Below, one piece after another: positions 1-8,693 of a stretch of DNA of 8,693 bases. Position 1 is the first letter of the stretch, and the number at the start of each line of letters is the position of its first letter. The notes below the pieces were generated by a model. It made no database searches, was not told the DNA's origin, and worked only from the letters and a program-made list of their open reading frames with translations. A program made the position numbers and the translations under genes. The stretch is from a virus (taxonomy: Duplodnaviria > Heunggongvirae > Uroviricota > Caudoviricetes): positions 1 to 8,693 of IMG/VR virus record IMGVR_UViG_2684622582_000003. One strand, given 5' to 3'.

Positions 1-9
1 GGTTATATG

Positions 10-1038
10 TTATTTCACCTGTACCACCACGAACTCATCCGGATCAGGGAGTACCATCAGCGGCGCGGACTGCGTCATGGTGAATTCACGGGCGGGATCA
101 CCCACTGTCATCCAGTGTTTCGGGTAACGGGAAGAGGCCACCACACCTTCCGACAACGCCTGCGCATCCTGAATGGCACCGTAACAACGGATCCCATCTG
201 CAGCAGTATTCCCCAGGACCAGCGTGCCATCTGGCAGATAACGTTTTTCGGTACCATCCTCTGATACATAAGACGTTTTCGCCACCACAATGGCCAGATC
301 GCCGTAATACCCCTTGAAGGACACCACTGCGCCCAGATCTTTCACTGCCGTTTCGAGTTGTGAATTTGAACCGCGACGGGTATCCAGTTTTTCGCGAAAC
401 AGCTTAAAACCATTCAGCAGACGCCAGACGGTACCGTCCATGATGGCAATATTCACAAGACCGCTGGCCTGGTCGCAGTAGAGGTCAATATCATGTGTAG
501 GATCGAACGTGTCACGATCCTGTTTTGACCATTCCTTACCGCTACCCTGTGTGATGTTATTCTTCGTCGACCTGCCAAAATCGACCTCAATTTTCTCGAA
601 CTGGTCTCCTTCCATGGTGTATTTGCCATACAACACAGCATTTACCGCCTGCATTTCTTCCACCTGGACAATCGCGTGCTCTTCCTGTTTGAGGTTATCG
701 GTAATGATACGCAGACGGCGGTAAGCCGGATCGTTCAGTTGAGATGGATCTTCACCAGGAAGGCGCTCAACCGCCTGCTGGTAATTAAATTCGTGTTTCG
801 GCTTGACGTAGCCCGGACGCAACACGCGGGTTTCACCCCCACGATGACGCAGCACTTTTCCTTCAACAACCGGGGAGACATAGGCCGCCACCGGCGTTTT
901 TCCGGTAATTTTGTCCAGCATCACCTCTTCGGTCTGGAAATTCACCGTACGGCGGAAAAACAGCTCCAGAAACAGCGCACGAAATTTAACTTTTTGTTCG
1001 GTATAACCGAGCAACTGGCGGGTCGTAAACAATCCCAT
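10..1038 (-). CDS. E: Major capsid protein, lambda gpE-like
   Basis: 342-aa ORF with ATG start (lambda E is 341 aa). Long collinear similarity to lambda gpE as recalled (e.g. PGYVKPKHE, AYRRxRII, EEMQAV, KYTMxGExF, RGSNSxLETAVKDLG, GDPAREFTMxQSAPLM). Lies directly downstream of the D homolog as in lambda; AAGGA-like SD about 9 nt upstream. Confidence 0.95.
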   Translation of the reverse strand: MGLFTTRQLLGYTEQKVKFRALFLELFFRRTVNFQTEEVMLDKITGKTPVAAYVSPVVEGKVLRHRGGETRVLRPGYVKPKHEFNYQQAVERLPGEDPSQLNDPAYRRLRIITDNLKQEEHAIVQVEEMQAVNAVLYGKYTMEGDQFEKIEVDFGRSTKNNITQGSGKEWSKQDRDTFDPTHDIDLYCDQASGLVNIAIMDGTVWRLLNGFKLFREKLDTRRGSNSQLETAVKDLGAVVSFKGYYGDLAIVVAKTSYVSEDGTEKRYLPDGTLVLGNTAADGIRCYGAIQDAQALSEGVVASSRYPKHWMTVGDPAREFTMTQSAPLMVLPDPDEFVVVQVK

Positions 1039-1065
1039 AAATCAGTTCCTTCATTCAGAAATAAG

Positions 1066-1087
1066 TCAGGCCACCGCAGTGGCCTGA
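1066..1087 (-). promoter_or_regulatory. Perfect 9-bp stem / 4-nt loop hairpin in the D-E intergenic region
   Basis: tcaggccac-cgca-gtggcctga read directly. Sits 8 nt after the D stop and 28 nt before the E start; on the mRNA strand it is followed by CUUAUUUCU. Function not determinable from sequence. Confidence 0.45.
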
Positions 1088-1094
1088 TAATGTG

Positions 1095-1442
1095 TTACGG
1101 CAGCGCCGCATGACTCAGGGCACTACCGGAAAAGGCGTTGGCCTTTTTGTGTTCATCCACACTCTCAGGCCAGTGAATTGCCTCCGTCGCAAAAGTCCCC
1201 GACTTGTAATACGTCAGTACCGTCTCTGTGCCTTCAAGCGGCAGTACCAGTATGCCAACCGCACCACCGGCTTTCTGTCCGTCCCAGACCACCAGTTTCC
1301 CGGTGGCCTCATCCAGCATCAGAGGCGTCAGAGCCGGTGTCGCCGAGGAAATCCCGCTGCTACCTGTGGCTGTATGAGCCGGATCATTACCGGAAAAAAT
1401 ACGTACTTCCGCACGCTGTTCAGTGATGGTTTTCGTTACCAT
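1095..1442 (-). CDS. D: Head decoration protein, lambda gpD-like
   Basis: 115-aa ORF with ATG start (lambda D is 110 aa). Matches recalled gpD motifs (DPAHTAT, TPLMLD, KLVxWDG, GAAVGIL, YKSGTF). Position between C and E as in lambda; GAGG SD upstream. Confidence 0.93.
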   Translation of the reverse strand: MVTKTITEQRAEVRIFSGNDPAHTATGSSGISSATPALTPLMLDEATGKLVVWDGQKAGGAVGILVLPLEGTETVLTYYKSGTFATEAIHWPESVDEHKKANAFSGSALSHAALP

Positions 1443-1478
1443 ATTATTAAAACCTCATATTGATGATCAGCAGTGGCT

Positions 1479-2264
1479 TTATGGCATGGCCATGAGCATT
1501 TTTACGTCCGCATCACCGTCTGCTGACGTTTGTGACATGCCGCCCTGTACCGCTGCCGGTGAATGGTTCGCCATGAAACGTTCAAACATGGATGTCGTGG
1601 AGGCAGAGACTGGTTCAGCTTTACCTGATGCAGCAGCCAGTACAGCCCGGGCATTCTCCACGGACATCCCCGGGCAGGCCGCCAGTTTTTCAGCCTGCGC
1701 CTCAGCCCCTTTCGCCTCATCCAGGGCCATGATTTGATCACGGAGTGATAGTCCGGCATCCGCCCGTGGTGAAGCAGCCAGGATCGGGCGGGCTTTTTCC
1801 ACTGTCATATCCGGCATCGCCGCCAGCGTTGCAGCCAGTTGTTCACGACCTTTCGCTTCTTCACACGCCATAATGCGATCGGCTTCACTCAGCGGGGATG
1901 CCTCCGGCTGCTGCGGTGCCGCCGCTGCCAGAATCGCCCGGGCCTGCTCAACGCTCATGCCCTGTTGTCCTGCCAGCATCGAGGCAAGCTGTTCACGTCC
2001 TTTCGCTTCCTGGCATGTCAGGATCCCCATCACTCGCTGGTTCTCCTGCGCGACGGCTTCCGTTGCAGTTAATTGCGGCATAGTGCCTCCTGTATCATGT
2101 GTGTTCAGCGTCGCGGCCATCACGCTGATGGCATCCGACGCATTGATTAATTCATCCGCCAGCCCGGCCTCAATACCTGACTGCCCTTCAAAAACTGCGG
2201 CCTCTGTCCCCATAACCGTATCCACAGATAAACCGGTATACATCGCCACTTTTTCAGCAAACAT
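1479..2264 (-). CDS. Nu3: Candidate nested scaffolding protein, Nu3-like (in-frame internal start within C)
   Basis: Inference from lambda, where Nu3 is made from an internal in-frame start at about codon 239 of C and shares its stop. Here in-frame ATGs exist at codon 241 (2262-2264) and codon 231 (2292-2294). The exact start cannot be fixed from sequence. Confidence 0.35.
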   Translation of the reverse strand: MFAEKVAMYTGLSVDTVMGTEAAVFEGQSGIEAGLADELINASDAISVMAATLNTHDTGGTMPQLTATEAVAQENQRVMGILTCQEAKGREQLASMLAGQQGMSVEQARAILAAAAPQQPEASPLSEADRIMACEEAKGREQLAATLAAMPDMTVEKARPILAASPRADAGLSLRDQIMALDEAKGAEAQAEKLAACPGMSVENARAVLAAASGKAEPVSASTTSMFERFMANHSPAAVQGGMSQTSADGDADVKMLMAMP

Positions 2265-2984
2265 CCGGCGCGCCGCATCAATGCGCTGCTGCATGTCCTG
2301 GCGAACCTCTGACGGCAGGGATTCAAACTGATTGCCATCCACCTTGTGCGATCCGGCGTAAATAAGCGTGATATCAACACCGGCCTGCGCCAGATGACCG
2401 GCATAGCTGACATGGCTCATCATCACACCAATGGAGCCGATACGTGATGTCTGGGTAATCAGCCGTCGGGAACAGGCCGATGCCAGCAGCATTGCCGCAG
2501 AGCAGGCCGTGTCATTGCACAGCGCCCAGACAGGCTTCTGCTGCCGGAGGCGGTAAATCATGTCAGCGCAGTCAAACGCGCCGGCGGCCTGTCCACCAGG
2601 GCTGTCAATATCCAGCAGTACACCCCGCACCTGGGTATCCGACATTGCCTGCTGAAGACAGGCGACAATGCCGTCATAACCTGTCATTCCGGAAAAAGGC
2701 CGCATGCCACCCAGCCGGTGCACCAGCGTGCCTGTCACCGGCAGTACAGCAATACCATTCACCACCCTGTAAACACGGGCCGGTCGTTTTCCTCCGGCCA
2801 TGTACTCGTCCGTTTCAGCCAGCATCCCGGGAGCATCAAGCTGTACCTGCTGTTGCGGTACCGAAAGACTTGTCGCACCCATCTCACGCCCCAGCGCGCA
2901 AAAGAAAACCCGCGCATAGGCGGGCTCCAGAAGCAGCGGTTCATTGAATGCTGCTGCAATAATGTGTGAAAGATTACGTCTCAC
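1479..2984 (-). CDS. C: Head maturation protease / scaffold fusion, lambda gpC-like (S49/ClpP-like fold), with expanded C-terminal repeat region
   Basis: 501-aa ORF (lambda C is 439 aa). N-terminal two-thirds collinear with recalled gpC (AFNEPLxLEPAYARVFFCAL, NGIAVLPVxGTL, YSGMTGYxGI, GGxxAGAFDCAD, KPVWAL, GSIGVMMxH, ITLIYxGSHKVDGN). Start is GTG at 2984 with GAGGAG SD about 10 nt upstream; overlaps the B stop by 11 nt. Confidence 0.9.
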   Translation of the reverse strand: MRRNLSHIIAAAFNEPLLLEPAYARVFFCALGREMGATSLSVPQQQVQLDAPGMLAETDEYMAGGKRPARVYRVVNGIAVLPVTGTLVHRLGGMRPFSGMTGYDGIVACLQQAMSDTQVRGVLLDIDSPGGQAAGAFDCADMIYRLRQQKPVWALCNDTACSAAMLLASACSRRLITQTSRIGSIGVMMSHVSYAGHLAQAGVDITLIYAGSHKVDGNQFESLPSEVRQDMQQRIDAARRMFAEKVAMYTGLSVDTVMGTEAAVFEGQSGIEAGLADELINASDAISVMAATLNTHDTGGTMPQLTATEAVAQENQRVMGILTCQEAKGREQLASMLAGQQGMSVEQARAILAAAAPQQPEASPLSEADRIMACEEAKGREQLAATLAAMPDMTVEKARPILAASPRADAGLSLRDQIMALDEAKGAEAQAEKLAACPGMSVENARAVLAAASGKAEPVSASTTSMFERFMANHSPAAVQGGMSQTSADGDADVKMLMAMP

Positions 2985-4566
2985 GTGGTGTTGTCTCCTC
3001 TTCCGGCCTGCGACTCTCCGCTATCTGCTGCTGATACGCCTGCGCTATCCACACCGGGCGTGAGAGCCCGGCTTTTTCCCGCTCTGCGGATTCCCTGACC
3101 TGCTGGCGGAAAATGTCCTGATAATCCTCGCCCATCAGTGCCAGTTCTTTCTCATACGTGCTCAGTCCGGCCTCAATGCGCATCACCGACTCCTGAACCT
3201 CCTTGAGTCCATCGATGGCCATTCTTCCGGAGCCAATCCACTCTGCCCGTGACCAGGCTGAACGCGCCTGATAAAAATCAAAACGCGCCCGTGGCGGACG
3301 AATAATCCCCCGAAGAAGCGCCTCTTCCAGCCAGCAGGAAAACATCTGCGTGGCCAGCCGGGACGCAATAAATTTTCGTCGCCCCATAAAATAACGCCAC
3401 GACTCATTGGCTGAGGCACGGGCACTTGAGTAACTGACCTTCGAGTAATCACGGGACAACTGTTCGTAGGAAACGCCAAGACCGGCGGCGATATACCGCA
3501 GCAGCGCCTGTTCAAGCGCAGAAAATCCATTATCTGAATCCTGCGCAGTCTGCAATTTCAAATCATCCCCGGGGAAAAGGTGCGGAATTTTGACACCGCC
3601 CAGCGTCACGTTATTCGTGTCATACCAGCGGGTGAACTTCTCCAGAATATTAATGAGCGGATTATCCTGCTGACTCTGCGGTGCACCCGCGATATATTCA
3701 AAGGCCTTTTCGGTATCGAGTTCACTTTCAATCGTCGCTGCATACATCGCCTTCACTATGGCCGACTGAAGCTGCGTGGTCTGCAGGGAATCGAGCATTT
3801 TCAGCCGTTCCATGACGCTGTAAAACTGATTAGCCCCACGGGTCTGCCCGTCCTCAACCGGCTCGAAAATATGCAGCATGGCCGGACGCCCGGTGGGAAG
3901 TTCACGCGGGATCCGTTCCCATCGTCCACTACCAGAGAACGGAAAATCATCCTCACAGATATGGTACGCAACGGCCCGTCCATACCGATCGACTTCCACC
4001 CCGGCCCGCAGGAAACGGTTACCCATACCGTGTCCCGGCGTGTCCACCCGTTTAGGGCTCACGGCTTTAAAACGCGTGCGGAATAACCGCGTGGTTTCCG
4101 TATCCCAGACCGGCTGCACAAAGATTTCACCGTTAAATGCATGAACGCCCACACCTTCACGGATAAATTCCGTAAAGGTGCGTTTCCCTTCCACATCGAT
4201 CTCGCCAAACATTCCTTCCGCGTATTCCGACCAGGCCGCCTCCACCTCATCGACAAAGATTTTTGCCGCGGACTCCCGCATCCCAAGCCAGCGCCAGTTC
4301 GGACGGTAACTAATAAGAAACATGTGCCCGACAATGTGATCCTTATGCAGGGCCACCGCATTGGCCGCTATACCGTTATTGCGTACCAGATCATCTGCAC
4401 GGGCATTCCCCAGACGCAACGCAGGCAGCAGGGCAGCATCAACACCCTGCGCCGGTGGTAACCACTCGGCCATTTGCCCGCCAAATCCTGCGCCGCCCCC
4501 GTTGTAGCTGAGACTCTCACGAAGCGGAACGCCGTTCACATCAATCAGGACTGGCGTTCGTTTCAT
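2974..4566 (-). CDS. B: Portal protein, lambda gpB-like
   Basis: 530-aa ORF (lambda B is 533 aa). N-terminus matches recalled gpB (GGGxGFGGQ, VDAALLPxxxxGNARADDLVRNNGxAANAxxLHxDHIVG). The ATG start overlaps the W stop as ATGA. Confidence 0.95.
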   Translation of the reverse strand: MKRTPVLIDVNGVPLRESLSYNGGGAGFGGQMAEWLPPAQGVDAALLPALRLGNARADDLVRNNGIAANAVALHKDHIVGHMFLISYRPNWRWLGMRESAAKIFVDEVEAAWSEYAEGMFGEIDVEGKRTFTEFIREGVGVHAFNGEIFVQPVWDTETTRLFRTRFKAVSPKRVDTPGHGMGNRFLRAGVEVDRYGRAVAYHICEDDFPFSGSGRWERIPRELPTGRPAMLHIFEPVEDGQTRGANQFYSVMERLKMLDSLQTTQLQSAIVKAMYAATIESELDTEKAFEYIAGAPQSQQDNPLINILEKFTRWYDTNNVTLGGVKIPHLFPGDDLKLQTAQDSDNGFSALEQALLRYIAAGLGVSYEQLSRDYSKVSYSSARASANESWRYFMGRRKFIASRLATQMFSCWLEEALLRGIIRPPRARFDFYQARSAWSRAEWIGSGRMAIDGLKEVQESVMRIEAGLSTYEKELALMGEDYQDIFRQQVRESAEREKAGLSRPVWIAQAYQQQIAESRRPEEETTPRET

Positions 4567-4766
4567 AACCTCACTCCCAGCGGGCGACGGCGGCGGGTTG
4601 TCCCCAGTACCGACTCCGCATCATTGATAGCACGATTAAGCTCATCCAGAGAGGCTGCCGTATATTCAATTCTGCGACCATCTTTCTGGACCGACACCAC
4701 CCGTTTACCGGTTAATAAATCAAGACGCGCCTGACGCAGCGCCTGCAGTTCAGCGACTGTTACCAT
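4563..4766 (-). CDS. W: Head-tail joining / DNA-stabilisation protein, lambda gpW-like
   Basis: 67-aa ORF (lambda W is 68 aa) with motifs LxTGKRVxxVQKDGRRxEYTAxS and TxRRR. ATG start at 4766 overlaps the end of A by 17 nt. Confidence 0.9.
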   Translation of the reverse strand: MVTVAELQALRQARLDLLTGKRVVSVQKDGRRIEYTAASLDELNRAINDAESVLGTTRRRRPLGVRL

Positions 4767-6678
4767 TCACTCCTCCGGACAGCTTCGCTGCCAGTTCTTC
4801 AAGGGTTGGCCGGGTCGTCTCTTCTTCCCGGGATTTTGCCAGTACAGCCAAATCAAGCTGCCAGCGTTGCATGGACACACGTAATGCTGCGTAGGCATAC
4901 ACCAGGCAGTCCAGCGCTTCGTTACGCCGCTTTTTGTTATCCCACAGCAGGCGCATCTTTCCTTTTTCCCACTTCTCCACAAGCTCTTCCGCGACCAGTT
5001 GCTGCGCCTCTGTCTGCGAAAAAATCTCCGGATTATCAGGAAAACGGATGGCATACGATGTGGCTTCATCCGCAGGTGTGGGACTGGCTTTCATACGGGC
5101 ATAGAGAATTTCTTTTGCGGTGTCCGTCCCCACTTCACACAGATACACGCCCCGCTGATTGCGGGTTTTCGGCATGGTGATCACCGGCTTGCCATAGACA
5201 GACGCGCCTTTTACCGGCAGCACACGGAAAACACCGTGTTTTTTTGACCTCTGATAGACGATTTCGCCATCGATCCCCCCGGTGTCCCAGCAGACACGGG
5301 AAATGGTCATTTCGGTGCCATCCGCATGGCGGTATTTTTTGTTAATCACCGCGTCCACACGTAACAGCGTCTCTTCCTCATCAGGACGCCCCATAATGAT
5401 GATTTTATCCACCAGAAAAGCTTCCTCTCCCGGTGCCCATCCCCAGACATACATCTCAAAACGGTTTCGCTGCGAGTCAATGCCCGCCGTCAGATAAACC
5501 ACCCTGTCAGGTACCGCCGCCGTGTAGTGCACGACCTTATCCATCAGAACCTGGTGATCGAGTTTTTCGCCTACGGCCTCTTCGTAGGTCTCGCCCAGCG
5601 TGGTGTTCACAAAGGTTTTCAGGCCGTTAGGATCTTTCAGCGCATCCAGCCAGTCATAGACTATCTGTACCCAGGTGGTAAACGGGCTATAGACCGTCCA
5701 GATGTGGAAAGTGATGGATCGCGGTGGCGGCATCTCCTCATCACCCGCGCTGTAAAATGTCAGGCCGTCACGTGTCCACATTCCTGTATTGTCACAAATC
5801 CAGCGCCCGTCAGTCTGGTCAAGTTCCGACTGACGGATCACACAGCCATTATGCTCACACAGGTAATACACCGTTTCCGGTTTACCCTTCTCCCATTTCA
5901 GGCCAAACGGCGTGGATTCATCACCAAACTTCAGATACTGCATCTCCCCACAATGAGGACAAGGAACATAAAACCGCATGAAATGCGCCGACTCGTTAGC
6001 GGCTTTTTCGATCTGGCAGGTGCCTTTGGTTTTGGGCGTCGAGCCGCGTATGGATTTAGGCCATACCGAACCTTCAATACGTTTATCGCCAAGCAGTGTT
6101 GGCGAACCTTCTTTTTCCACATCCGGTTCAAACGAGGAGAGTTCGTCATAACAGACCACATCCACAGATTTTTCACGGTAATTTTTTGCTGCCGCGCCAC
6201 CCAGACACCAGAAACCCACGCCGGAGGAAAAACGCTTCAGGGTGAGCGTATTATCGCGGTGTTTTCTTCCGAACCATGGAGCCAGATCCAGCAATGCAGG
6301 AACATCCCTTATTGTTGGCTCGACATGAGATTTCATGAAATCCTCGGCGGCAGAATCTGTTGGCTGAAAAAGCAGACTGTTACGGGATTTATGCTCAATG
6401 AAATAGGCTTCCACCCCTAACAGCATTTTGGTATAACCGACGCGCGCCGATTTAATCAGATTAATGGTGCGGATCCGGTCATTTCCCATGCTGTTCATAA
6501 TGGCAACCTGAAACGGCAGTGTTTCCCATTTCCCGGGAGTATATGAAGATTCTTTCGGCAGATAATAATGTTGATCAGCCCACTGAACTGTTGTCAGTGG
6601 AACCGGAATATTGAGAGATAAAAGCCCTGTAGCTATCGCACCGGCTGCATTAGCTGCCTTCTGTGCGTCTGAAATCAT
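4750..6678 (-). CDS. A: Terminase large subunit, lambda gpA-like
   Basis: Near full-length collinear similarity to lambda gpA as recalled (WADxxYYLPKES, WETLPFQ, SARVGYxKMLLGV, HVEPTIRD, KRFxxGxGFWCLGG, YDELxxF, [26 protein letters not shown], [39 protein letters not shown]). The ORF track begins at a non-ATG codon at 6720; I place the start at the ATG at 6676-6678 (MISDAQ...), which gives a lambda-like N-terminal length and a lambda-like overlap with Nu1. Confidence 0.93.
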
Positions 6679-7198
6679 CGATCCACCCGCCCACGTTTTT
6701 ACCGACTTTAGCTGCAACATTGGAGGCTTTCGCGATTTCAGTTTTCACCACATCAAGATGTGATGGTGAAATGTCTGGATATTTACGCTGTAACGTCAAC
6801 GGCACACGCACAAGTATCCCCGAAATTTCCTGTGCTACACGTTGCAGAATGAAGGTAAACAATTCAGTTTCCAGAACCATTCCTTCTTCTCGGGCATTTT
6901 TCAGTTCCTGCGCATCTGCCTGTGCTTTTGTGAGTCGGTAGCGCTCATAGTCAATGGTGCCGGGTTGTAAATCTGACTCCGCAGCCGCACGCAAATCGTC
7001 CAGTTCTTTGCGGAGCTTTTCGTTTTCGATATCTTTTTCCCGCTGCGCATACCACTCAATGGCTTCTGCAGAATTGAACATGACCTCAATGCCTTTGCCA
7101 CCCCCCGACAAAACTCTCAGCCCCTGGCTTTGCCAACCAGTAATTGTTCTGACATCGCACTCAAAAATCTCTGCCAATTTCTTTTTATTAACCTTCAC
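6650..7198 (-). CDS. Nu1: Terminase small subunit, lambda gpNu1-like (N-terminal winged-HTH cosB-binding domain)
   Basis: Strong similarity to recalled lambda Nu1 (VNKKxLAxIF, RTIxxWQxQG, VLxGGGKGxEV, ENEKLRxExxxLR, [28 protein letters not shown]). No in-frame ATG aligns with the lambda start; the best fit is GTG at 7196-7198 (GTG-AAG-GTT-AAT against lambda ATG-GAA-GTC-AAC). An alternative GTG lies at 7205-7207. The start is about 176 nt from cosN, as in lambda. Confidence 0.88.
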
Positions 7199-7206
7199 AA
7201 AACACA

Positions 7207-7373
7207 CCTGTCACAAAAAGAAGAAAGGATCTAAAAACGATTTTTTCAGCGAAAAATCACTGCTGCCAGATCCTTTCTTTTTTTAAAAAAGAATCTAGTA
7301 AACAACAAGTTACTCAGAAGAAGAACGGATCTGCTTTTTCCGGGAAAATTTTCATAAATAGCGAAAACCCGCG
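7207..7373. promoter_or_regulatory. cosB: terminase small-subunit binding region with three R-like repeats (R1 about 7215-7231, R2 about 7266-7280 inverted, R3 about 7316-7331) and an AT-rich spacer
   Basis: In lambda orientation the repeats read GATCCGTTCTTCTTCT (R3), AAAGAAAGGATCTGG (R2, inverted) and GATCCTTTCTTCTTTT (R1), in the same order, spacing and orientation as lambda R3/R2/R1 between cosN and Nu1. The AT-rich stretch between R3 and R2 (7281-7310) is where lambda carries its IHF site I1. The core differs from lambda (CGTTTCC). Confidence 0.8.
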
Positions 7374-7385
7374 AGGTCGCCGCCC
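7374..7385. other. cosN cohesive-end segment (12-nt 5' overhang; terminase nick sites flank this interval)
   Basis: The + strand aggtcgccgccc is the reverse complement of lambda's cohesive end GGGCGGCGACCT. Flanks cccgcg (7368-7373) and cgtaac (7386-7391) also match the lambda cosN flanks as recalled. Confidence 0.9.
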
Positions 7386-7634
7386 CGTAACCTGTCGGAT
7401 CGCTGGAAAGGACCCAGTAAATGAGAATAATTATCACTTGCGTTAATATCCTGTTTCTTCCACCCTCGCACAGGACTGGCGAGCATGAGGGACAAACCCG
7501 CGAATCATTAGCGCGGTAAAAACCCGGTGTGCATCGTTTTTGATTATTCCCGCACACTCGCGCAGAAGGAGTTCCCCGTCGGGCTGCGGTCATGGTTAAT
7601 GCGGGAATACGGCGACGATACAGCGCATGATGTG
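7386..7634. other. Noncoding genome right-end segment (expected to contain cosQ near cosN)
   Basis: Lies between the stop of the Rha-like gene and cosN. No convincing ORF; the only ORF here (7246-7593, minus) runs across cosN. cosQ is placed by position only (lambda has it a few tens of bp from cosN on the right-end side); I do not recognise a motif. Confidence 0.4.
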
Positions 7635-8183
7635 TCAGGCTTGAATACCCTTATCGAATCCCGGTAATAAAAACTGTCCCTGCCTTTCCAGGCGTTTCAG
7701 CTTTGCAAGCAATTGAGTTTTTTTCGTTCTTCCCCAGCGATTGAGCAGGCGGCCAGACATACTGGCGACATCCTTCTCTTTCATATACTCCAACATTATG
7801 GCGTTGCGTTCTGCTTCATAACTTTCGCTGTACTTACGGAGTTCTGCTGACATCCAGTTAAAGGCATTTATATAGGCCTCTTTAACGGCGTCGGCTTTTG
7901 CGCCATTAAATCCCATGACCAGCATAACGAAGCCACTAAAGTCCATGCGGTAGTAAATCTGTTTCTTGTCGAAAATCCCTAAATCATTGATTTTTTCGGC
8001 AACGCAAAAGTGCGCTCTCCGGAAATCTTCAGAGCAATGACAATTTTTCAGCGCCCTCAATACGTCCGCATGACGCTTACCAAATGCCTTTGCGATCTGG
8101 AAAGTGTCAGTTACCGGCTCACCCTCTGCTGCGGTAACTAACTGGCGAAAGTCAAAATCAGGAGTCTCAATTAATTCACTCAT
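7635..8183 (-). CDS. Phage regulatory protein, Rha family (N-terminal Rha-like DNA-binding domain), accessory gene between the lysis cassette and cos
   Basis: 182-aa ORF with ATG start and a GAGTAGG SD-like sequence about 12 nt upstream. Motifs FGKRHADVLRAL and MGFNGAKAxxxKEAYINAFNWM fit the Rha / Phage_pRha family signature as I recall it. The C-terminal 70 aa are basic, probably helical, and unassigned. Occupies the Rz-to-cos slot where lambda carries bor. Confidence 0.6.
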   Translation of the reverse strand: MSELIETPDFDFRQLVTAAEGEPVTDTFQIAKAFGKRHADVLRALKNCHCSEDFRRAHFCVAEKINDLGIFDKKQIYYRMDFSGFVMLVMGFNGAKADAVKEAYINAFNWMSAELRKYSESYEAERNAIMLEYMKEKDVASMSGRLLNRWGRTKKTQLLAKLKRLERQGQFLLPGFDKGIQA

Positions 8184-8335
8184 GTCGTATGCCTACTCTT
8201 TGAAATGAACCTTTGCCGCACAGGAAACCAGCCCACCGAGGCTCGCCAGCACTAACTGGTATCCTCAAAGGCCCATTCCAAAGGGTCAGGTTCGGTGGTT
8301 ATTGTGCGCTGCGGTGCGCGGTGAAATACCTATAC

Positions 8336-8359
8336 AAAAACGCCCCGCATCTGCGAGGC
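8336..8359 (-). terminator. Intrinsic-terminator-like hairpin plus U-run downstream of Rz
   Basis: On the minus-strand RNA: GCCUCGCA-GA-UGCGGGGC (8-bp stem with one G-U pair) followed by G-UUUUU. Lies 43 nt after the Rz stop codon. Confidence 0.5.
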
Positions 8360-8401
8360 ATTTTCCTGAAAGTCACTTGTTAAATTTCAGTGAGATTAAA
8401 A

Positions 8402-8693
8402 TTATTTTAAGCATTGCGTCCTGATGTACTCCTGCAGGTAGTTAACCTGCGCGGTTATCTTGTCGATTCCACTTCGGAGACGGTAATAATTGAGTTCAGC
8501 ATCTGCTGTAAGTCTTGGGCTTTCTCCATCGCCCATGCTGCTGGCTCCGGTCGTTGACTTTGCACAGGTGGCGGCGACTTGCAGGCGCTTACGACCAGCA
8601 GAAACATCAGCACGGAGACTTTCGATAGTCGCGTTAGCATCAGCAAGCTCCTTTGTGTATCTGGCGTCGAGTTCTGCTACATCACGTTGACGC
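8402..8693 (-). CDS. Rz: i-spanin Rz, 3' portion (5' end lies beyond the window)
   Basis: Minus-strand frame translates to RQRDVAELDARYTKELADANATIESLRADVSAGRKRLQVAATCAKSTTGASSMGDGESPRLTADAELNYYRLRSGIDKITAQVNYLQEYIRTQCLK-stop, matching recalled lambda Rz (RQRDVAALDAKYTKELADAK...AAGRRRL...SPRL...QCR). Stop codon TAA at 8402-8404. Confidence 0.9.
   Translation of the reverse strand, partial: RQRDVAELDARYTKELADANATIESLRADVSAGRKRLQVAATCAKSTTGASSMGDGESPRLTADAELNYYRLRSGIDKITAQVNYLQEYIRTQCLK
8455..8640 (-). CDS. Rz1: o-spanin Rz1, outer-membrane lipoprotein, embedded in the +1 frame of Rz
   Basis: ATG at 8638-8640 gives a 61-aa product MLTRLSKVSVLMFLLVVSAC-KSPPPVQSQRPEPAAWAMEK... with signal peptide, lipobox (VSAC) and Pro-rich mature region, like lambda Rz1. 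Entirely inside Rz in a different frame. The ORF track starts two codons upstream at TTG. Confidence 0.85.
   Translation of the reverse strand: MLTRLSKVSVLMFLLVVSACKSPPPVQSQRPEPAAWAMEKAQDLQQMLNSIITVSEVESTR

Follow-up and report, generated by a model that had tools for sequence, protein, structure and literature searches.

The open reading frame (ORF) found in the slot that separates the lysis cassette from the packaging site of the phage DNA analyzed here is, judged by its sequence, P22-type rha, an ordinary and already named phage late gene. The gene itself is thus known, both under its P22-type name and as a labeled gene in public genomes. What is new lies just outside the ORF: a conserved RNA leader that belongs to an unclassified family and stands directly before rha. 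The window, by which we mean the whole stretch of DNA analyzed, comprises 8,693 nt (positions 1 to 8,693 of the IMG/VR record IMGVR_UViG_2684622582_000003, Caudoviricetes). Overall, we consider it probable that rha forms an insulated cassette of the late operon that is transcribed by Q-dependent read-through and limited in its translation by the leader.

All genes in the window are on the minus strand, and together they form a lambdoid late region read backwards (Table 1). The order is Rz (with Rz1 inside), a spacer, the 182-amino-acid (aa) ORF, ∼250 nt, cosN, and Nu1, followed by terminase A, W, portal, protease/scaffold, D, and E. The ORF call of the sequence-only reading that preceded this analysis is real; its strand had been left unmentioned. 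Between the Rz stop at 8402 and rha lies a spacer of 218 nt, and cosN forms the downstream border of the slot. We take the 12 nt read there as AGGTCGCCGCCC to be the reverse complement of the lambda cohesive end. A longer rha ORF is impossible here because of an in-frame TAG (8195..8193) upstream of the ATG. A 115-aa ORF on the minus strand (7246-7593) spans cosN and would therefore be cut in virion DNA. It gives short local PHROG matches only, and a shorter form is labeled hypothetical in phage IdasGreatGrand (2961-3239). This ORF is probably not a gene, and conservation across it is more likely due to cos subsites.

Table 1. Features of the rha slot and its surroundings, in window coordinates.
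Feature	Position	Strand	Evidence
Rz spanin gene, 3' part, runs off window	8402..8693	minus	Pfam Phage_lysis 3.9e-10
Rz1, embedded in Rz	8646..8455	minus	Pfam Rz1 2.4e-20
Intrinsic-terminator-like hairpin	8336..8359	minus	GCCUCGC-AGAU-GCGGGGC, then G + U5
Structured leader RNA of rha	8184..8337	minus	Covariation, arm test, RNAalifold, CM matches
H1	8319-8316 / 8309-8306	minus	Covariation
H2 (pseudoknot arm pair)	8298-8292 / 8239-8233	minus	Covariation, arm test
H3, 20 bp, ends 13 nt before ATG	8285-8266 / 8215-8196	minus	Covariation, arm test
H5	8265-8256 / 8231-8222	minus	Covariation, arm test
Conserved bulge GUGCGG	8221-8216	minus	Alignment
P22F equivalent, 89 nt	8189..8277	minus	83/89 nt identical to published P22F, first 81 identical
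rha CDS, 182 aa	7635..8183	minus	Pfam, NCBIfam, PHROG matches; P22 Rha 89% aa identity
Mosaic joints	7627..7730		Phage-21-like match ends 7627; P22 match begins ∼7730
cosN, 12-nt cohesive end, AGGTCGCCGCCC (minus strand GGGCGGCGACCT)	7374-7385	minus	Sequence read
Nu1	7207..6650	minus	Pfam Phage_Nu1 1.3e-84

The Rha-like N-terminal domain that had been proposed for the protein is confirmed by two curated cutoffs and a PHROG match. Residues 25 to 112 (8111..7848) match Pfam Phage_pRha (PF09669; E 5.8e-22, 78.5 bits versus a cutoff of 29.9), NCBIfam TIGR02681 is matched at 6.5e-19 (68 bits versus a cutoff of 45.95), and PHROG 518, “Rha-like transcriptional regulator,” at 2e-82. The remainder had been described as an unassigned basic tail. 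It is basic, with 13 K/R versus 7 D/E in aa 121-182, but not unassigned, as aa 121-174 (7823..7662) constitute a Pfam ORF11CD3 domain (PF10549; E 2.9e-22, 79.1 bits versus a cutoff of 25). In an alignment of 35 homologs reaching down to 50% identity, the ORF11CD3 half is near-invariant and the N-terminal half variable. ORF11CD3 is the best conserved part of Rha, retains 29 invariant positions among proteins that are just ∼50% identical overall, and on this alignment is under strong purifying selection. A motif within it, ERNAVMLEYMKEKDVASMSGRLLNRWG, is nearly invariant. Some relatives carry KilA-N in place of the N-terminal Rha half, and ORF11CD3 looks like a constant effector module behind exchangeable DNA-binding heads. 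In one relative locus (8836-9330), KilA-N is fused to ORF11CD3.

Pfam assigns only Phage_pRha and ORF11CD3 to the protein, with no KilAC/ANT or AntA domain and no nuclease domain; “anti-repressor,” where it is applied to Rha, is an annotation label only. PADLOC defense-protein models gave 0 families at an E value of ≤0.01. A PDB sequence search returned no match, and a fold search with an AF2 model (pLDDT 74) returned no informative one. The N-terminal domain of that model is confident, and its order of elements (beta-beta-alpha-alpha-alpha-beta-beta) fits a winged helix-turn-helix as described in a passage quoted in PMC8951638; the C-terminal domain is predicted to form a helical hairpin.

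The earlier statement that the role of the gene is not predictable from sequence was half right, since the gene proves to be the named P22 rha, for which IHF-linked harm to growth is on record. In a secondary source, rha (orf201) of P22 is described as a late-operon gene that is detrimental to lytic growth without IHF, with Henthorn and Friedman 1995 cited for the phenotype, and a block of phage growth in IHF-defective (himA/hip) hosts is said to be known just for P22 and phi80 (PMC4936722). The leader contains no IHF site that matches the core consensus WATCAANNNNTTR. A single exact match to that core lies inside the ORF (7980-7992) and is uninformative, because 58 of 200 shuffles hold at least one match.

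The relationship to P22 extends well beyond the protein. P22 Rha (ORF201) is 89% identical to the window protein over 176 residues and has both Pfam domains in common with it. In P22 and in prophage BTP1, rha likewise lies directly after Rz/Rz1, and the 218-nt spacer is nearly identical. At the DNA level, Rz, the spacer, and most of rha are 95.6% identical to P22 from ∼7730 on (Rz/Rz1 against P22 gene 15/Rz1, also 95.6%), and BTP1 DNA is 95.8% identical over window positions 7730-8693. In RefSeq E. coli sequences the gene bears the label “Rha family transcriptional regulator,” as does a DNA copy in E. coli E7-1N7 that is 98.7% identical. The gene occurs in 378 of 5,426 complete E. coli genomes (best match, 98.7%), and at the protein level Rha is found in 548 phage records.

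While rha stays linked to Rz, the packaging module behind it is swapped: it is of the lambda/21 cos type in the window, of the gp3 type in P22, of the CUS-3 type in that phage, and a further terminase in E. coli E7-1N7. P22 continues downstream of rha with orf25, orf80, and gene 3, whereas in the window a cos of the phage-21/lambda type comes next, followed by Nu1. Phage 21 and its relatives match the head and cos module of the window at 93% identity. This similarity ends just before the rha stop codon (7627-7635), and the P22-like DNA sets in ∼95 nt from the 3' end of rha. Given the two joints, at 7627 and ∼7730, the last ∼30 rha codons come from a third lineage; they match the type found in phage IdasGreatGrand. 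In PhiR57_1, the head module of which matches the window at 93% up to 7627, the slot holds bor and a tonB-like fragment instead of rha. This bears out the notion that the slot is variable.

The spacer between Rz and rha is better conserved than the flanking coding sequence, and the leader is still recognizable before homologs whose proteins are just 40 to 58% identical. To evaluate its structure, 53 nonredundant leaders were aligned. In a plain MAFFT alignment, which was not fitted to structure, 76.2% of cells are paired (65.5% in shuffles) and 249 double changes are present (113 in shuffles); 0 of 500 shuffles, all of which leave in the relatedness among the sequences, reach either value, and a slide control gives a sharp peak at 0. 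When aligned to a covariance model (CM) comprising H1, H3, and H5, the leaders are 84.9% paired versus 70.1%, and in 34 of the 41 pairs both partners have changed. RNAalifold, run without the model, recovers the same three helices. MAFFT puts H2 out of register between leader types; for this reason, we employed a second CM (H1/H2/H4) and a register-free arm test. In the second CM, H2 is 83.6% paired, and six of its seven pairs covary. H4 (8259-8256/8249-8246), an alternative to H5, was dropped with just 66% paired.

The arm test compares the duplex energy of a leader's own 5' and 3' arms with that of arms taken from different leaders (2,000 permutations). Own arms pair better than foreign arms in H2 (−10.8 versus −6.4 kcal/mol), H3 (−23.0 versus −14.2 kcal/mol), and H5 (−11.3 versus −6.1 kcal/mol), with 0 of 2,000 permutations as good in each case. 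H2 exists in at least 10 distinct variants, all of them complementary. One G.U pair of H3 is nearly invariant; read from the opposite strand, it would become an A.C mismatch, which places the structure on the rha mRNA strand. Two unpaired motifs, the GUGCGR bulge and a GGGC segment, are also conserved. Taken together, the leader is a conserved structured RNA with covariation beyond the controls, none of which fully corrects for common descent, and a cis-regulatory role is predicted for it. H2 crosses H3 and H5, and the two sets may form either a true pseudoknot or two alternative folds. Rfam 15 offers no family match for the leader, C4 and isrK included, even at permissive thresholds; the sole match within the leader is DUF805b (15.7 bits versus a gathering cutoff of 35.6, E 0.3), and seven other leader loci gave 0 Rfam matches at an E value of ≤0.1.

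A gap of 3 nt separates the end of H3 from the AGG of the likely Shine-Dalgarno sequence in both the window and P22, so that occlusion of the ribosome site by H3 would be partial. The computed unpaired probability of positions −20 to +3 is 0.27 in the full leader versus 0.63 in an RNA that begins at the 5' end of P22F. P22F is a small RNA from a June 2026 study of P22 infection, in which it appears as a read cluster validated by RT-PCR; its counts were 2,054 RPM for infected cells, 0 RPM for uninfected ones, and 926 RPM for vesicles (PMC13397905). Its abundance in infected cells is comparable to that of oop and sar, 6 nt separate its 3' end from the rha start, and the authors give it “no known function” and draw an analogy with IsrK (PMC13397905). 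The rha start codon used in that text is the window ATG rather than that of the longer ORF201 model.

P22F covers the inner part of H3, H5, the apical loop, and the Shine-Dalgarno region and ends between the Shine-Dalgarno sequence and the AUG. In P22 infection, then, the folded core of this leader builds up as an RNA species of its own. Because no promoter or terminator brackets the 89 nt, P22F is probably a processing product. The position of its 3' end could point to a cleavage that inactivates the mRNA, or to a trans-acting RNA, rather than to a simple cis switch. P22F shares its strand with the leader and, like it, immediately precedes the rha start, but the leader is longer, with H1, the 5' arm of H2, and the outer part of H3 upstream. 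The accessible text on P22F presents no secondary structure, family, or covariation (PMC13397905), whereas the leader is shown here to covary and to precede many other genes.

Exactly one CM match lies directly upstream of every enterobacterial homolog. Independently of any protein, a DNA pattern search of IMG/VR yielded >120 loci, 80 of which were examined; the leader is present in 78 of these, several times in two copies. In 81 of 85 independent matches, an ATG stands at the position predicted by the model. This fixed distance also bears on the annotation of P22, where the RefSeq rha model comprises 201 aa and is 23 codons longer at the N terminus. The extension corresponds to window positions 8184-8252 and P22 NC_002371.2 positions 2082-2150, and the window, with its TAG, is unable to encode it. 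As the extension falls within the leader, the window has a TAG there, and the ATG is fixed, the P22 start has probably been called too early. Similar rha models of 199 to 235 aa in public genomes probably also start too early, inside the leader.

The genes behind the leader were classified from 36 nonredundant proteins, which include Phage_pRha (11), KilA-N (11), HNH_3 (4), KilAC (3), P22_AR_N (2), and T5orf172/MUG113 (2) proteins; ORF11CD3, P63C, AntA, and TerB proteins are found behind it as well. By these domain assignments, the leader-borne genes are essentially the domain-swapping “Bro network” described previously (PMC10111431) plus HNH endonucleases. Bro-type genes in other prophages are also preceded by the leader. 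Up to five copies occur per E. coli genome, and leader-like DNA of the window type is present in 965 of 5,426 complete E. coli genomes (∼18%), mostly without annotation. Many E. coli genomes (e.g., O157:H7) hold only leader positions 46-157, at 95 to 97% identity, with no annotated feature, which suggests that in Stx and related prophages copies of the leader precede other genes that are annotated differently.

Individual loci illustrate the arrangement. Stx phage Lys8385Vzw has a second leader (759-911) before a KilAC (ANT) antirepressor gene (906-1601), between the endolysin gene R and Rz, and Rosenbergiella nectarea (positions 496-638 and 633-1307) has two leader-gene cassettes in tandem. 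Pseudomonas phage F10 encodes a Rha+ORF11CD3 homolog (2501-3031; 41% identity) that lies directly before the holin gene, not after Rz, and the leader model gives no match at this homolog. The leader is thus not universal for Rha+ORF11CD3 proteins, and the link between rha and the lysis cassette is older than the leader.

The terminator-like hairpin that the sequence-only reading had placed before the gene is present, directly 5' of the leader, as a 7-bp stem with six G-C pairs and a 4-nt loop. Folding of the 61 nt around it gives −23.9 kcal/mol (z = −4.6), a value equaled by 1 of 200 shuffles. By the criteria for intrinsic (Rho-independent) termination, the hairpin is a predicted terminator. 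A consensus terminator scan missed it, and folding and conservation were used instead. Over 110 nt scanned upstream, a hairpin with a T run is found in 46 of the 53 nonredundant leaders, and in 43 of the 53 it ends 130 to 174 nt before the ATG. The stems differ widely in sequence among relatives while their position is kept, and phage ES18 has a terminator annotated at the equivalent position. What the consensus scan does report is a small, weak terminator-like hairpin inside the leader, AGCCUCGGUGGGCU, with a U-rich tail (8243..8230, minus strand); it overlaps the 3' arm of H2 and may represent an alternative local fold.

A consensus scan restricted to sigma-70 sites found no promoter on the gene strand within 7200-8693, nor did it find one on that strand in the corresponding region of CUS-3 or a Stx phage. 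In published RNA-seq data for the BTP1 lysogen, rha is expressed at a TPM of 1.7 to 36 (median, 10) over 17 conditions and is classed as “lytic,” and pid, the gene next to it, is expressed in the lysogen at 41 to 1,110 TPM; according to the authors, spontaneous induction in 0.2% of cells accounts for such low signals of late genes. The TPM of rha correlates with that of the small terminase gene terS (r = 0.90). In these ortholog data, rha behaves as a late gene, at background level in the lysogen. With no promoter found and with BTP1 rha tracking the late genes, the suggestion that the gene is transcribed separately from the late operon is unsupported, as is expression in the lysogen. On the plus strand, antisense to the 3' end of rha, a weak Rfam suhB/mmgR match (7675-7732; 26 bits versus a gathering cutoff of 41, E 0.008) covers a short GCTT/AAGC hairpin with a T run behind it. 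This match is probably due to chance, and the site could be a small antisense terminator.

The mechanism that we propose builds on the identity of the gene, its position after Rz, the conservation of the terminator, the covarying leader, and the fixed leader-ATG distance, all observed here, and on late-level rha transcription (BTP1 lysogen) and a discrete 89-nt RNA (P22), reported elsewhere for near-identical phages. The cassette inside the late operon would consist of an intrinsic terminator, a structured leader of ∼150 nt, and the gene, in that order. Having no promoter of its own, rha would be reached just by Q-modified, terminator-resistant RNA polymerase from pR'; gene order is the basis for naming pR', as both pR' and Q lie outside the window. 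H3 (20 bp), together with H5, would hold the ribosome-binding region in or next to a helix and so keep translation low. The pseudoknot helix H2, as a folded-back pseudoknot or as an alternative fold, or else processing at the 5' end of P22F, could open the ribosome site, and translation of rha would be allowed transiently or after processing. Such tight limitation would fit the reported harm to phage growth in IHF-defective hosts. In the weakest step of the proposal, Rha may act late as a DNA-bound regulator or antirepressor-like factor via its conserved C-terminal domain.

Other accounts of the gene and its leader have to be weighed against this mechanism. That rha is an autonomous moron, expressed from its own promoter in the lysogen and serving lysogenic conversion, superinfection exclusion, or defense, is very improbable. 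Such a role would suit the variability of the slot, where lambda-like relatives have bor, and an upstream terminator would insulate the gene from transcription that is not antiterminated. However, the sigma-70 scan gave no promoter-like site on the rha strand, BTP1 rha is a lytic-class gene that follows terS whereas its neighbor pid is the one expressed in the lysogen, PADLOC gave no match, and the terminator lies upstream of rha, whereas the classical moron layout has it downstream. The same expression and PADLOC results leave the earlier suggestion of lysogenic-conversion or exclusion cargo unsupported. A second account, which overlaps with the best explanation, treats the terminator, leader, and gene as a selfish mobile cassette of the homing-endonuclease kind, with Rha functionless for the phage and the leader serving mainly to make carriage less costly for the phage and to act as a common recombination joint. 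One leader before nonhomologous genes (Phage_pRha, KilA-N, HNH_3, KilAC, etc.), the multiple copies in E. coli genomes, the tandems in R. nectarea and Lys8385Vzw, mosaic joints flush with the cassette, and the resemblance of Bro-network proteins to homing endonucleases (PMC10111431) all speak for it. We nevertheless consider this account unlikely, if worth serious attention: the invariant positions of ORF11CD3 indicate strong purifying selection, Pfam detects no nuclease domain in Rha, and the homing site and the mobility event are putative.

For the leader itself, the reported abundance of P22F, at the level of oop and sar, and the IsrK analogy drawn in the same text (PMC13397905) would also suit an element that is mainly a trans-acting small RNA gene, like IsrK of Gifsy-1 or c4/CI of P1/P4. 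Its placement before rha would then be secondary, or would allow the long transcript to be activated or repressed in trans; RNAs of the C4/CI/IsrK type do control Bro-network genes (PMC10111431). The leader, however, matches neither C4 nor isrK in Rfam at permissive thresholds, its strict spacing to the ATG and the covarying helix at the ribosome site favor action in cis, and the 89-nt species, unbracketed by promoter or terminator, is probably a processing product, which makes a trans-acting gene rather improbable. Doubtful to a greater degree is a sensor, riboswitch-like or protein binding, in which a ligand, temperature, or a host or phage protein switches between H2 and H3/H5; IHF or Rha itself might be the protein. 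Two crossing sets of helices that each covary, conserved unpaired motifs, and a size and complexity beyond those of a plain hairpin would be expected of a sensor, but the downstream genes have no common metabolic theme, no ligand pocket can be inferred, H3 and H5 are much more stable than H2, and, by a geometric estimate, the helix lengths allow all three to coexist in a folded-back pseudoknot. A bolder reading of the leader, which we put forward tentatively as a real possibility, is that it represents an unclassified family of pseudoknotted cis-regulatory RNA, the front end of mobile Bro-network/HNH cassettes in enterobacterial late operons, and gates translation either by a fold switch (H2 versus H3/H5) or by P22F processing. 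If true, this reading would explain the old IHF-dependent Rha phenotype.

In practical terms, the gene in this slot should not be taken for lysogenic-conversion cargo, and the hairpin upstream of it is to be seen as one part of a conserved regulatory cassette. The leader offers a handle on how a harmful rha product is restrained, including the role of IHF. It likewise offers a handle on the exchange of domain-swapping Bro-network genes and on how phage late operons tolerate them.

Several known systems share parts of this arrangement. The c4 (P1/P7), CI/seqA (P4), and IsrK (Gifsy-1) RNAs base-pair with the ribosome-binding region. They resemble the rha leader in that a structured RNA precedes an antirepressor-like gene in one transcript (PMC10111431). 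Unlike these RNAs, the rha leader pairs the two arms of one long cis hairpin and adds a pseudoknot; the rha cassette, moreover, sits in the late operon behind a terminator and has no Rfam C4 or isrK match. Free-standing homing-endonuclease genes of T-even phages (I-TevI and mobE) have an upstream terminator and a hairpin that sequesters the ribosome site. The likeness to the rha cassette consists of the terminator, the helix close to the ribosome-binding site, and a potentially harmful gene, and HNH_3 genes do carry the rha-type leader. In contrast to the T-even case, the sigma-70 scan here revealed no internal late promoter whose transcripts would leave the ribosome site free, and most genes behind the rha-type leader encode DNA-binding proteins, not nucleases. 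Finally, lambda bor, which is expressed in lysogens, occupies the same slot between Rz and cos but lies on the opposite strand, whereas rha is co-oriented with the late operon.
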